A stretch of 64,000 nt of DNA, taken from positions 536,640 to 600,639 of the forward strand of contig CAVRTH010000019.1 in the NCBI GenBank assembly GCA_963724095.1. Direction: 5' to 3'. Positions 24,835-31,291 of the stretch are shown here, one piece after another (positions within the stretch are counted from its first letter, which is position 1; every line of letters begins with the position of its first letter). The notes beneath the pieces were generated by a model, which saw only the letters and a program-made list of their open reading frames with translations, ran no database searches and was not told the origin of the DNA. Made by a program: the position numbers and the translations under genes. This DNA comes from an uncultured Chloroflexia bacterium (GTDB taxonomy: Bacteria > Chloroflexota > Limnocylindria > Limnocylindrales > CSP1-4).

Positions 24835-24863
24835 TTGACGCCTGGGAGCGGCGGGGCTAGACT
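24835..24863 (+). promoter_or_regulatory. sigma-70-like promoter TTGACG-N17-TAGACT upstream of the rrf2-suf-cysO cluster
   Basis: Read directly: ttgacg cctgggagcggcggggc tagact, about 95 bp upstream of the Rrf2 ATG. Confidence 0.45.
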
Positions 24864-24865
24864 CA

Positions 24866-24889
24866 ATCCTGACGAAATAAGTCGGAATT
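24866..24889 (+). promoter_or_regulatory. candidate Rrf2/IscR-type operator (GACG-AAATA-AGTC core) just downstream of the -10
   Basis: aatccTGACGAAATAAGTCGGaatt approximates the IscR type-1 consensus GACT-N5-AGTC. Confidence 0.35.
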
Positions 24890-24955
24890 GACGGTGCCGC
24901 ACGTCCAAGCGCCAACCAAGGCGGCACCGCTGACGAGGAGACCGGTCAGACCAGC

Positions 24956-25489
24956 GTGCGCACTACTGTCCCGAGCTCGGGAGCCCTCCATTTCTCCACG
25001 CGCGGCGAGTACGGCGTCCGCCTCATGGTCGAGCTTGCCCGCCACCACGGCAGTGGCCCCGTGAGCCTGTCGGAGATGGCCGACCACGAGTCCCTGCCGC
25101 GTCCGTACCTGGAGCAACTGGTGGTGAGCCTGCGCGAAGCGGACCTGGTCACCAGCACTCGCGGCGCACGCGGCGGTTACGAGCTGTCGAGGTCACCTGC
25201 GGCCATCCGCATGAGCGAGGTGATCACCGCGCTCGAAGGGCCCATCGCGCCCATGATCTGCGCCAGCGATGACCCACACCACGCAGAGGCGTGCCAGCGT
25301 GCCGGCTTCTGCAACGTCGAGCAGCTGTGGCTGCGCGTCCGAGACGCCATCGTGGTTGCCCTCGACTCCATGACCCTCGAGGAACTCGCCGAGCCGCGGC
25401 TCGGCCACCCTGCCCATCCCCAACCGGCCCTCGTGGCCATCCAGCCGCTCTCAGAGCGACCCATCAAGGAGCCAGTCGCCCAGCCATGA
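24956..25489 (+). CDS. Rrf2-family transcriptional regulator (IscR/CymR-like)
   Basis: N-terminal winged-helix LHFSTRGEYGVRLMVELA...ARGGYEL and three Cys in the C-terminal half (ICASDD, EACQRAGFCN). Confidence 0.75.
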   Translation: MRTTVPSSGALHFSTRGEYGVRLMVELARHHGSGPVSLSEMADHESLPRPYLEQLVVSLREADLVTSTRGARGGYELSRSPAAIRMSEVITALEGPIAPMICASDDPHHAEACQRAGFCNVEQLWLRVRDAIVVALDSMTLEELAEPRLGHPAHPQPALVAIQPLSERPIKEPVAQP

Positions 25490-28221: not shown

Positions 28222-29406
28222 ATGAGCAAGTCATACCGAGACCTCTTGCGCGAGGCGCGTGAGCAGGTACCCGAGGTGACCACGGCCCAGGCCGAGCTGG
28301 CCGCCGAACGTGGCGCCACCCTCCTCGACGTCCGCGAGGGGAGCGAGTGGGAGCAAGGTCACGTCAGCGGTGCCCGCCATGTCTCCAAGTCCTACATCGA
28401 GCAAGAGATCGAAGGCATCGCGCCCGACCGCTCCCTGCCGATCGTGGTCTATTGCGCCAGCGGCATCCGTTCGCTCTTCGTGAGTCAGACGTTGCAGCAG
28501 ATGGGCTACACCGATGTCACCTCCATGCGGGGTGGGTTCCAGGCCTGGAAGGCCGAGGGCCGTGCCTGGGTCCAGCCCACCGTGCTGACCCCGGAGCAGA
28601 AGTCGCGCTACTCGCGCCACCTTCTCATCCCCGAGGTCGGAGCCGAGGGCCAAGTCCGGCTGCTCGACTCGAGGGTGCTCTTCGTCGGTGCCGGCGGTCT
28701 GGGCTCACCGGCCATGCTGTACCTGGCCGCGGCCGGTGTCGGCACCATCGGCATCGTCGACTTCGACGTGGTGGACGCCTCCAACCTGCAGCGACAGGTC
28801 ATCCACCGCACCGACCGCGTGGGCATGCGCAAGGTCGAGTCGGCGGCCATGACCATCAGCGAACTCAATCCCGATGTGAAGGTCCTTCCCCACGAGGTCA
28901 TGCTGGGCCCAGACAACGTCGCGGAGCTGATCGCAGGCTACGATCTCGTCTTCGATGGGACCGACACGTTCGAAACGCGCTACGTCCTCAACGATGCCGC
29001 CGTGGCTGCCGGCATCCCGGTGGTGCACGCGTCGGTCTTCCGCTTCGAGGGCCAGCTGACGGTCTTCAAGCCGTACGACGGACCCTGCTACCGCTGTCTG
29101 TACCCCACGCCCCCGCCGCCCGAGCTGGCACCGGGTTGCTCCGTGGCCGGCGTCCTCGGTGTCGTCCCCGGCGTGATGGGCCTGCTGCAGGCCACCGAGG
29201 GCATCAAGGTGCTGCTCGACATCGGCGACTCGCTCGCGGGCCGCCTGCTCATCTACGACGCGCTCGACGGAGCCTTCAGCGAGCTCCAGCTGCGACGCGA
29301 CCCCAAGTGCCCGGCCTGCGGCGACGGCGAGCTCGTCGAACCGGCCGCTGACGGCGTCTTCGCACTACCCACCACTTCAGCTGCCAGGACGGAGGTGAAC
29401 GCATGA
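28222..29406 (+). CDS. sulfur-carrier adenylyltransferase (ThiF/MoeB E1-like) with an N-terminal rhodanese domain, i.e. reversed order relative to MoeZ
   Basis: Rhodanese CxxGxR (VVYCASGIRS) at residues around 85-95, then YSRHLLIPEVG, VLFVGAGGLGSP and two CxxC pairs (CYRC, CPAC). Confidence 0.8.
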   Translation: MSKSYRDLLREAREQVPEVTTAQAELAAERGATLLDVREGSEWEQGHVSGARHVSKSYIEQEIEGIAPDRSLPIVVYCASGIRSLFVSQTLQQMGYTDVTSMRGGFQAWKAEGRAWVQPTVLTPEQKSRYSRHLLIPEVGAEGQVRLLDSRVLFVGAGGLGSPAMLYLAAAGVGTIGIVDFDVVDASNLQRQVIHRTDRVGMRKVESAAMTISELNPDVKVLPHEVMLGPDNVAELIAGYDLVFDGTDTFETRYVLNDAAVAAGIPVVHASVFRFEGQLTVFKPYDGPCYRCLYPTPPPPELAPGCSVAGVLGVVPGVMGLLQATEGIKVLLDIGDSLAGRLLIYDALDGAFSELQLRRDPKCPACGDGELVEPAADGVFALPTTSAARTEVNA

Positions 29407-29678
29407 CTGCGGTCCGGATCCCGCCGGTGCTGCGCGGGCAGGCCGGCAACCAGAAGAAGGTCGAGGTCACCGGCGCCACGGTGGGCGAGGCCCTCGCGTC
29501 ACTGCTCGAGCAGTTCCCCGGCCTGCGCGAGCAGGTCTTCACCGCTGACGGCACGCTCAACCGCTTCGTCAACGTCTACGTCAACGGACGCGACGTGCGC
29601 TATGAGCAGGAGCTGGCGACCCCGATCGGGGAAAGTGACGAGGTCATCCTGCTGCCGGCCATGGCCGGGGGTCGCTAG
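29403..29678 (+). CDS. cysO: MoaD/ThiS-family sulfur carrier protein (CysO-like), C-terminal GG
   Basis: 91 aa ending ...ILLPAMAGG-R; start overlaps the upstream stop. Confidence 0.75.
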   Translation: MTAVRIPPVLRGQAGNQKKVEVTGATVGEALASLLEQFPGLREQVFTADGTLNRFVNVYVNGRDVRYEQELATPIGESDEVILLPAMAGGR

Positions 29679-29693
29679 CGAGGTCAGCTCGTC

Positions 29694-30713
29694 GTGGATC
29701 CGACGACGGAACGACAGTCGGGGACAGAGATCGACGCGCTGCGTCCGCATGCCCACGGAGGCCACGCGCGCCACGGCGGGCGCTTCCCCTCGATCGTCGA
29801 CGCCATCGGCTTCACGCCGCTGGTCGAGGTGCCCAACGTCTGCCCCAACCCCAACGTGCGGCTGTACGTGAAGCTCGAGTTCATGAACCCGACCGGGTCC
29901 GTCAAGGACCGCGTGGCCAAGTACCTCATGGAGGACCTGGAGGCTTCCGGTCGCCTCCAGCCCGACTCCATCATCATCGAGCCCACCAGCGGCAATACCG
30001 GCATCGGCTTGGCCATGATCGCGCGCCGCAAGGGTTACCGCGTGGCCGTGGTGGTGCCGGACAACGTGACCATGGAGCGGCGCCAGCTGCTGGCGCTCTT
30101 CGGTGCGGAGGTCATCGATTCGCCCGGACAACTGGGCTCCAACGGGGCGGTGGCCCTGGCCAAGCACCTCGTTGAGAAGGACAGCCGCTTCGTCATGCCG
30201 TACCAGTACGGCAACCCTGCCAACCCGCGGGCCCACGAGGAGACGACCGCCGAGGAGATCATCGCCGACTGTCCCGAGGTAGACGCGTTCGTGGCCGGGC
30301 TGGGCACCGGCGGGACGCTCATGGGCGTGGGCCGTCGCCTGCGGCGACACAACCCCGACGTGCGCATCTATGCGGCCGAGCCACTGCCCGGCGAGCGGCT
30401 ACAGGGACTGCGCTCGCTCGACGAGGGCTTCATCCCCGAGATCTTCGACCCCACCGCCATCGACGGCAAGTTCCTGGTCTCCAACACCGACGCCATCGGG
30501 TCGCTCCGTGAACTCACCGAGAAAGAGGGCATCTTCGCCGGCGTCTCCTGCGGCGCGGTGATGGTGGCCGCCAAGCAGCTGGCACGGGAGATGGAACGGG
30601 GCACCATCGTGGCGCTGCTGGCCGACGGCGGCTGGAAGTACCTCAGCGAGGATATCTGGACGCGCGACCTCGATGCCGACGAGGACGAGATCGACAGCCT
30701 GAACCTGTGGTGA
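29694..30713 (+). CDS. cysM: PLP-dependent cysteine synthase (CysM, O-phosphoserine/thiocarboxylate-dependent type)
   Basis: PTGSVKDRVAKYLMED, EPTSGNTGIGLAM, LYQYGNPANP; collinear with CysM of the mycobacterial mec-cysO-cysM locus. Start probably downstream of 29694. Confidence 0.85.
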   Translation: MDPTTERQSGTEIDALRPHAHGGHARHGGRFPSIVDAIGFTPLVEVPNVCPNPNVRLYVKLEFMNPTGSVKDRVAKYLMEDLEASGRLQPDSIIIEPTSGNTGIGLAMIARRKGYRVAVVVPDNVTMERRQLLALFGAEVIDSPGQLGSNGAVALAKHLVEKDSRFVMPYQYGNPANPRAHEETTAEEIIADCPEVDAFVAGLGTGGTLMGVGRRLRRHNPDVRIYAAEPLPGERLQGLRSLDEGFIPEIFDPTAIDGKFLVSNTDAIGSLRELTEKEGIFAGVSCGAVMVAAKQLAREMERGTIVALLADGGWKYLSEDIWTRDLDADEDEIDSLNLW

Positions 30714-31291
30714 ACGACGAGCGGGATAGGGATCGCGCAGCGGAGGTCCTGTCCTCAGCCGATGAGCCGGCCGTGGCCGGGGACAGCGCGGTCGTGCCCG
30801 ACGTCGCAGCCTGGCAGCGGGCCGCTGCCAGTGGCGCTTCGTCCGGCGGGCGGGGCGGGCGTGCGCCCTGGGTCCCGGCATCGGCGTCGCTCCCGCCGTC
30901 GATCCGCGGCGAGCTTGTCGACTGGCTACGCGGGGCGCTGCCCAACGAGGGCTGTGGTGTGCTCGTCTCCAACCGCACCGCCGAGGACGGTGGCGTGCCC
31001 TCACGTTTCGTGAGCCTGCGCAACGTCGCCGCCTCGCCCTACCGCTACCTCATGGATAGTGGAGAGCTGCTACGGGTGATGCTCGAGATCGACGACGCCG
31101 ACGAGGTGGTGTGGGGCATCGTCCACTCACACGTGGCCTCTCCGCCATACCCATCGCCGACCGACATCGGCCTTGCCGCCTATCCCGATGCGGTCTATGT
31201 GCTGGCGTCCTTCGCGGCCGAGCCGCCGGAGGTTCGGGCCTGGACCATCGTGGAAGGCTCCGTCAACGAGGTGGTCCTGGAGCGGACATAG
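30707..31291 (+). CDS. mec: JAMM/MPN+ metalloprotease (Mec+-like CysO deconjugase)
   Basis: JAMM motif HSHVASPPYPSPTD (HxHx7Sx2D) plus an upstream Glu; start probably later than 30707. Confidence 0.75.
   Translation: MVNDERDRDRAAEVLSSADEPAVAGDSAVVPDVAAWQRAAASGASSGGRGGRAPWVPASASLPPSIRGELVDWLRGALPNEGCGVLVSNRTAEDGGVPSRFVSLRNVAASPYRYLMDSGELLRVMLEIDDADEVVWGIVHSHVASPPYPSPTDIGLAAYPDAVYVLASFAAEPPEVRAWTIVEGSVNEVVLERT

Follow-up and report, generated by a model that had tools for sequence, protein, structure and literature searches.

Do iron-sulfur (Fe-S) cluster assembly genes and genes for thiocarboxylate-dependent cysteine synthesis that share one array also form one functional unit? This question is raised by a stretch of 64,000 nucleotides (67% G+C) from contig CAVRTH010000019.1 of an uncultured soil bacterium of the Limnocylindria, Chloroflexota (assembly GCA_963724095.1, positions 536,640 to 600,639), referred to below as the window. 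The window contains an array of eight genes in the order Rrf2-sufC-sufS-sufU-E1-cysO-cysM-mec. We consider it somewhat better than an even chance that, through this locus, an Fe-S-sensing repressor controls both the mobilisation of sulfur and the synthesis of cysteine by the thiocarboxylate-dependent route. The strongest evidence obtained here for a functional link between the two halves is their shared operator, which is found before both of them in genomes where the array is split.

Gene content, promoter and operator

The eight genes, all on the plus strand and in the order proposed by an earlier sequence-only reading of this DNA, were borne out by matches to Pfam and NCBIfam profiles:

24956-25489, plus strand: Rrf2-family regulator (PF02082, 122.9 bits)
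25486-26403, plus strand: sufC, Fe-S assembly ATPase (TIGR01978, 316.8 bits vs cutoff 212.8); its start overlaps the Rrf2 stop (ATGA)
26452-27724, plus strand: sufS, type II cysteine desulfurase (Aminotran_5 matched across two frames)
27761-28160, plus strand: sufU, zinc-type sulfur acceptor (NifU_N match; the uncorrected open reading frame, ORF, continues to 28225)
28222-29406, plus strand: E1-like adenylyltransferase/sulfurtransferase with N-terminal rhodanese and C-terminal ThiF domain (Pfam Rhodanese and ThiF; NF006444, 540.6 vs cutoff 449), below called E1
29403-29678, plus strand: cysO-like ThiS-fold carrier (PF02597), with a 4-nt overlap with the E1 gene
29694-30713, plus strand: cysM-like pyridoxal phosphate (PLP) enzyme of the PALP family (231.8 bits)
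30707-31291, plus strand: mec-like JAMM metalloprotease (PF14464, 63.7 bits vs cutoff 25), overlapping the end of cysM

The Rrf2/sufC and E1/cysO pairs overlap by 4 nt each, and the remaining gaps measure 15-61 nt. Coordinate 24835, at which the sequence-only reading let the cluster begin, turned out to be the -35 hexamer of a promoter-like site, which is directly followed by a palindrome:

24835-24863, plus strand: sigma-70-like promoter, TTGACG (-35), 17-nt spacer, TAGACT (-10); the only plus-strand promoter-like site in 24500-32100
24865-24889, no strand: palindromic operator AATCCTGAC-GAAATAA-GTCGGAATT, directly past the -10 box, with a core matching the IscR type-1 site

No terminator-like site was seen in the cluster, and no Rfam RNA family or riboswitch was detected in 22-34 kb. 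One operator match was observed in the whole window, compared with 0.05 expected by chance. The palindrome has the core SYYGAC-N7-GTCRRS, as does the IscR type-1 site, for which the E. coli consensus ATASYYGACTRWWWYAGTCRRSTAT was found in published papers.

Conservation and splitting across Limnocylindria

The array was compared over a survey set of 84 sequences, that is, 83 related loci and the window. A SufC scan of species-representative genomes yielded 80 loci at 70-90% identity, all of them in Limnocylindria-type metagenome-assembled genomes (MAGs), and those relatives that carry a name are recorded as 'Candidatus Limnocylindrales' or 'Chloroflexota' MAGs. Three ENA contigs (1.7-2.9 Mb) have the same gene order, with sufS and sufU intact in two of the three. 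The 84 sequences were distributed as follows:

Contiguous, full eight-gene array (window included): 31/84
Contiguous, sufU-E1-mec without cysO/cysM: 3/84
Contiguous, cut by contig or locus end, or mec undetected: 8/84
Split, sufU-E1-cysO-cysM-mec: 12/84
Split, sufU-E1-mec: 7/84
Split, sufU-mec: 2/84
Split, cut by contig or locus end: 7/84
No sufU within at least 3 kb past sufS: 5/84
Too short for classification: 9/84

The eight-gene array is thus common in Limnocylindria, yet it is not obligatory. The fused operon put forward earlier holds up in so far as its order is kept contiguous in 31 of the 84 sequences, but 28 relatives carry two separate units instead, Rrf2-sufC-sufS and sufU-E1-(cysO-cysM)-mec. 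In these split loci (28/84), sufS and sufU are parted by a break of 0.75-8.2 kb, and the inserts examined contained unrelated genes, some of them on the opposite strand (AMP-ligase, epimerase, GT4 glycosyltransferase, GH32, MarR). The break lies within the suf part (sufS|sufU), not where the suf genes meet the cys genes. sufU stands beside the E1 gene in every locus showing both, at gaps of 14-335 nt and, in locus L003, with a 4-nt overlap. Ten loci (L022, L023, L046, L028, L031, L032, L036, L037, L040 and L048) have sufU-E1-mec without room for cysO/cysM, and in two others (L035 and L045) sufU is directly followed by mec, without E1. Outside Limnocylindria, the closest E1 cluster is that of Acidobacteria (54% identity), and neither sufU nor cysO, cysM or mec lies in its neighbourhood.

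The regulatory sequences are conserved along with the genes. TTGACG-N17-TAGACT is kept upstream of Rrf2 in nearly all related loci, and the palindrome, in its conserved form AATCCYGAC-N7-GTCGGRATT, follows at once downstream of the -10 box and lies upstream of Rrf2 in 75 loci. A second operator copy, 48-72 nt before the sufU start, was present in 24/28 split loci vs 3/42 contiguous loci. In the split loci this copy precedes a -10 box (TAGACT or TACACT) situated 10-16 nt before the sufU ATG, and the sufU transcript of these loci would therefore be leaderless or almost leaderless. The sufU promoter of split loci (e.g. L063, 14030-14085) has no Shine-Dalgarno sequence.

Because both halves carry the same operator after the split, they stay in one Rrf2 regulon. 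The earlier proposal of one Rrf2 regulator over all the genes gained support from this, with the conserved promoter and palindrome before Rrf2 and the second operator copy before sufU when the array is split. In our best reading, the window cluster would be one transcription unit, an autoregulated operon, which in relatives takes the form of a regulon of two units.

The Rrf2 regulator

The regulator has the winged-helix domain of the Rrf2 family, scoring 113.9 against the TIGR00738 cutoff of 73.3. Its best NCBIfam match was the CymR model NF047409 (124.6, below the cutoff of 195), and the IscR model TIGR02010 gave 94.2, below the cutoff of 207.55. Among solved structures the order is the other way round: the best relatives were Thermincola potens IscR (4CIC, 119 bits) and Bacillus subtilis CymR (2Y75, 106 bits). 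The protein has three cysteines spaced C-X10-C-X5-C, and a C-X9-20-C-X5-C arrangement was invariant in every orthologue scored (about 80). In alignment, these three cysteines fall on the ligand positions that are mutated in 4CIC. From this the regulator probably carries an Fe-S cluster, and, judged by its sequence, it is IscR-like rather than IscR itself.

Proteins of the cysteine-synthesis half

A protein identical to the E1 (394 amino acids, P0001) is present in NCBI/ENA. Its rhodanese domain has the active-site loop CASGIRS, and its best solved relatives were Uba4, MoeB and ThiF. The MoeZ model NF005902 scored 368, well below its cutoff of 647, and the MoeZ-type order of ThiF followed by rhodanese is reversed here.

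The three remaining proteins resemble the cysteine-synthesis proteins of Mycobacterium tuberculosis. For the CysO-like carrier, the best solved relative was M. tuberculosis CysO (3DWG_C, 69.5 bits). For the CysM-like enzyme it was M. tuberculosis CysM (3DWG, 3DKI; 305 bits). The CysM-like enzyme scored just below the cutoff of the NCBIfam cysKM model (332.2 vs 344.15) and keeps the Arg of the ALRNMDEGF motif; it is probably an O-phosphoserine sulfhydrylase. The Mec translation contains the HSH-X10-D motif and the upstream Glu. The carrier ends in ...AGG-R, one residue past the GG, and among 49 relatives its C-termini were GG in 20, GGR in 11, GGA in 6 and other in 12. As the CysO-like protein ends in GG-Arg, Mec would also have to trim the carrier before its activation. 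Trimming of a carrier by a JAMM protease is known for HcyS and QbsE.

Mec also bears an N-terminal extension of about 45 amino acids (30707-30850) with the pattern EPA..VP.V..WQRAA.SG, which is conserved at the protein level in relatives (L001-L013). It is followed by a variable linker rich in Gly, Ala and Arg, and in some relatives the extension was omitted by gene callers.

Frameshifts in sufS and sufU

The gene identities of the earlier reading stand, but two frameshifts had been overlooked: both sufS and sufU are broken as read. In sufS, Aminotran_5 profile positions 2-128 lie in one frame and 130-371 in another. In sufU, the last third is lost, the NifU_N match ending at profile position 96 of 127, and a shift to the +1 frame brings back RLKCALL, the third Cys motif. 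Aligned with close relatives, each gene shows a single surplus base, located at about 26919 for sufS (CT[C]GATC) and at about 28061 for sufU (GATC[G]AGC); both bases are absent from 9/9 relatives. With the extra base removed, SufS passes the TIGR01979 cutoff (552.8 vs 475.1) and SufU passes the TIGR01994 cutoff (113.9 vs 92.5).

Two explanations were considered. If the frameshifts were real, sufS and sufU would be pseudogenes and the cluster would be decaying in this strain. Both frames are indeed broken in the sequence as given; nevertheless, we regard this as highly improbable, the least probable of the alternatives discussed here. Each break consists of one inserted base, missing from all nine relatives and located beside GATC, the sequence past each break is still conserved, and removal of one base restores full-length proteins. 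Moreover, a third single-base frameshift, not at GATC, was found at about 19871 in an unrelated Cob_adeno_trans gene 7 kb away, and among related loci multi-frame sufS matches were confined to long-read MAGs with 'contig_N' names. Since the extra bases are absent in relatives, another frameshift occurs nearby, the pattern is limited to long-read assemblies and the repaired proteins pass their cutoffs, the frameshifts are probably long-read assembly errors. Methylation motifs are linked to nanopore errors, and the insertions adjoining GATC are possibly motif-linked consensus errors of this methylation-linked kind. In practical terms, single-base insertions beside GATC in this long-read assembly mimic pseudogenes, which should serve as a warning.

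The repaired SufU (27761-28160) lacks most of the insertion between Cys2 and Cys3 seen in the Thermus and Bacillus SufU structures (a gap vs 2QQ4). It passes the SufU model despite this gap, and it has the RLKCA motif, not the His-Cys motif of IscU.

SufC and the search for sufB and sufD

The sequence-only reading had noted the absence of sufB and sufD from the cluster, and this was confirmed for the window and for the surroundings of sufC in relatives. No SUFBD domain was found by a Pfam scan among the large ORFs of the 64-kb window. For a further search, we used an 80-residue probe of the SufB C-terminus, which was validated on known proteins (SufB of PDB 5AWF, E = 8e-22; it also matches SufD and SmsB). 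The probe gave no match in the window, none within ±10 kb of sufC in the 83 related genome loci (about 20 kb each) and none in the 120 metagenome loci listed in the palindrome scan described below. The inserts of 2-8 kb in split loci were considered as a place for sufBD and ruled out, as they hold the AMP-ligase, epimerase, GT4, GH32 and MarR genes. No Chloroflexota SufB was found in the plasmid collection, and the SufC scan of species-representative genomes returned cluster-type loci only, with no second SufC paralogue.

The position of sufC directly after the regulator gene, which had been taken as unusual, is less so than assumed: the B. subtilis operon has the order sufCDSUB, with sufC as the first structural gene. 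The SufC protein itself scored 270 bits to Thermus thermophilus SufC (2D2E) and 252 to E. coli SufC of the SufBCD complex, vs only 143 bits to the archaeal SmsC MJ0035. No characterised SufC is known to function without a SufB-family partner. Because SufC is of the standard SufBCD type, a SufB/SufD partner elsewhere is the default expectation; we infer that this is a canonical SufC whose partner is presumably encoded at another place in the genome.

The alternative would be that these genomes have no sufB/sufD at all and that SufC-SufS-SufU forms a new minimal system for sulfur trafficking or Fe-S assembly, in which SufU acts as scaffold or the E1 is the client. The lack of any SufB/SufD signal from a validated probe in the window, the 83 genome loci and the 120 metagenome loci is in its favour. 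However, the search spanned a small fraction of each genome, SufC is far closer to SufBCD-type SufC than to SmsC, and a SufT-like gene lies nearby, as would be expected of a normal SUF system:

19101-19457, plus strand: SufT-like DUF59 gene (PF01883), about 5.5 kb upstream, outside the operon and not preceded by the operator

The synteny of this gene with the cluster is kept in many related loci. Taken together, we think a SufBD-free module very unlikely. Were complete genomes of Limnocylindria found to be truly devoid of sufBD, the interest of the system would rise sharply.

Co-regulation or direct sulfur relay

According to the model we favour, an IscR-type Rrf2 repressor with an Fe-S cluster would bind the palindrome abutting the -10 box of the single promoter. 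Loss of the cluster (due to Fe-S demand, oxidative stress or sulfur shortage) would lift the repression and raise the expression of all eight genes jointly. The products of sufC, sufS and sufU would then mobilise cysteine sulfur for Fe-S assembly, while the E1 would adenylate and thiocarboxylate CysO, CysM would join the thiocarboxylated CysO to O-phosphoserine, and Mec would free cysteine besides removing the extra C-terminal Arg of CysO. Cysteine from the second half would serve as the substrate of SufS, so that the two halves would be linked mainly by regulation and by a supply chain. The arrangement suggests, rather than demonstrates, a shared sulfur supply line for both modules.

Several observations weigh against this model. 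The regulator, whose cluster binding and DNA binding are predicted, stays below all NCBIfam equivalog cutoffs. The SufB probe drew a blank around sufC in all the related genome loci. Furthermore, in split loci sufU parts from its partner sufS and stays with the E1 gene; together with the overlap in L003, this fits a direct relay between SufU and E1 better than a purely regulatory link. The E1 likewise has a catalytic rhodanese domain, which implies that its sulfur comes from a persulfide and not from free sulfide.

In such a direct relay, persulfide would pass from SufS to SufU, on to the E1 rhodanese and finally into the CysO thiocarboxylate, and possibly into MoaD- or ThiS-type carriers encoded elsewhere. 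Besides the adjacency of sufU and E1 (14-335 nt, or overlapping) wherever both were seen, which is retained after the cluster is split, and the presence of the rhodanese active-site Cys loop, it is favoured by the ten sufU-E1-mec loci without cysO/cysM, which suggest that the E1 serves carriers other than CysO. Mycobacterial MoeZR serves more than one carrier type, and a cysteine desulfurase has been proposed as its physiological sulfur donor (PMC3227635). On the other hand, the relay is futile for cysteine synthesis: it gives no net cysteine because its sulfur comes from cysteine. It would be more plausible for an E1 that, in the manner of MoeZR, acts on MoaD- or ThiS-type carriers as well, and the sufU-E1-mec loci fit this. 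The adjacency can also be historical, as illustrated by the sufU-mec loci without E1 (L035 and L045). All splits share one junction and operator type, and may stem from a single inherited event instead of repeated selection, and the nearest E1 cluster outside Limnocylindria, in Acidobacteria, stands alone. On balance, we consider a direct relay possible but rather unlikely.

A stronger claim, that the rhodanese domain of the MoeZ-like E1 physiologically receives its persulfide from SufS-loaded SufU, appears slightly more doubtful still; in its extreme version there would be no SufBD, and SufC-SufS-SufU-E1 would constitute a new machine. If true, the donor role of SufU would reveal where the sulfur of CysO- and MoaD-type thiocarboxylates comes from in vivo. 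We retain co-regulation by an Fe-S-sensing repressor as the preferred reading.

The same palindrome in other lineages

A metagenome scan for the perfect palindrome returned at least 120 loci, and all counts of neighbouring genes given here are among the matches listed. The palindrome stood beside Rrf2(-sufC-sufS) in 12 loci and beside sufU-E1... in at least eight. In seven loci (L149, L125, L109, L137, L154, L162 and L086), the form AATCCCGAC-N7-GTCGGRATT was located before a gene for a MetY-type O-acetylhomoserine sulfhydrylase, at a distance of about 20-60 nt in the two loci measured. These metY contigs were considered as Limnocylindria regulon members and rejected; the one checked, L149, encodes a MetY protein 99-100% identical to that of Candidatus Microthrix/Neomicrothrix (Acidimicrobiia). 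Since L149 belongs to Acidimicrobiia, sites of this type are employed for methionine synthesis in a second phylum. Neither metY nor a thrC-like gene was found in the window or in the genome loci.

Five loci had the palindrome before a gene for a threonine-synthase-like protein (thrC-like), followed by a small ThiS/CysO-like gene in at least three. This pair may represent a carrier-dependent route to homocysteine or methionine under a like regulator. In L095, L155, L172 and L194 (43-64% G+C), the threonine-synthase-like protein has a Cys-rich N-terminal stretch.

In another high-GC lineage, three loci (L117, L124 and L190) carried the palindrome beside a cysM-like gene following mec; here the operator is internal to the mec-cysM pair, and the proteins are 35-39% and 48-52% identical to those of the window. 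Finally, one locus, on a contig of 55% G+C, had it beside an Rrf2-desulfurase-scaffold operon. Its occurrence before metY, thrC-like/thiS-like, cysM-like and Rrf2-desulfurase genes links this kind of site with Fe-S genes and with genes for sulfur amino acids in several lineages. In Actinobacteria, an Rrf2 protein predicted to control sulfur assimilation has already been annotated (PMC8557817).

Other features of the window

Directly upstream of the promoter, at 23267-24741, lie genes for a DUF4389 protein, with a proline-rich N-terminus containing PPPGY repeats, and a DUF6941 protein; the synteny of this pair with the cluster is limited to the closest relatives. At 11989-14175, there is an ORF for a radical SAM protein resembling lysine-2,3-aminomutase, whose N-terminal region, at about 350 residues, is unusually long and has no Pfam match. 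This long N-terminus may be an artefact of stop-to-stop ORF definition or of another frameshift.

Comparison with known systems

The first half of the array resembles B. subtilis sufCDSUB in its order of sufC ... sufS-sufU, its type II SufS and its SufU-type acceptor. It differs in that sufD and sufB are missing from the locus, Rrf2 precedes sufC, and genes for thiocarboxylate chemistry follow sufU.

The second half corresponds to M. tuberculosis mec-cysO-cysM (Rv1334-1336) together with moeZ (Rv3206c): the carrier, the PLP enzyme and the JAMM protease best match the M. tuberculosis protein or family, and the E1, like the moeZ product, bears a rhodanese domain. However, the order here is E1-cysO-cysM-mec, with the E1 gene inside the operon, and the genes are linked to suf genes and an Rrf2 operator. 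The rhodanese domain is N-terminal (NF006444 type, itself a known family), unlike the C-terminal one of MoeZ, CysO has the extra C-terminal Arg, and Mec has the N-terminal extension.

As for the regulator, it shares with IscR (E. coli; T. potens 4CIC) the Rrf2 fold, three cysteines at ligand positions, a gene placed first in its operon and a SYYGAC-N7-GTCRRS palindrome overlapping the promoter. Unlike IscR, it falls below the NCBIfam cutoff, has C-X10-C-X5-C spacing and targets suf-type and cysteine genes, not iscSUA. With CymR of Bacillus and Staphylococcus it has in common the best NCBIfam match, the second-best solved structure and the theme of cysteine-synthesis control, yet it remains below the CymR cutoff (124.6 vs 195). 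CymR is not known to possess a cluster site of three cysteines, and it depends on CysK as its partner.

For the proposed relay, there are precedents in which sulfur passes from a desulfurase via a rhodanese to a ubiquitin-like carrier. One such relay is IscS/SufS-TtuD-TtuB of Thermus. Others are NFS1-MOCS3 and IscS-YnjE-MoaD (PMC3227635). In contrast to the relay considered here, all three function without SufU and are not encoded in one operon with the desulfurase, and they feed cofactor synthesis or tRNA thiolation, not cysteine synthesis.

A full-text literature search turned up no publication that connects CysO and SufU in this sense. The earlier impression that this exact arrangement is undescribed therefore agrees with our search, although all its parts come from known families. 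What is new is that the two modules are coupled, both physically and in their regulation, in a conserved manner, that an IscR-like operator stands before cysteine-synthesis genes and that sufU and E1 are persistently linked. As a system the cluster is not new in kind, but it offers a useful lead on the sulfur donor of MoeZ-type enzymes.

Biological significance

Across the Limnocylindria surveyed, SufS and SufU form a candidate donor pair that is genetically tied to a rhodanese-bearing E1, which makes the question of the donor testable. The shared operator indicates that an IscR-like, probably Fe-S-sensing regulator reaches past Fe-S assembly into de novo cysteine synthesis. Like sites before methionine and cysteine genes in other Terrabacteria point to a wider link, so far undescribed, between Fe-S status and the supply of sulfur amino acids.

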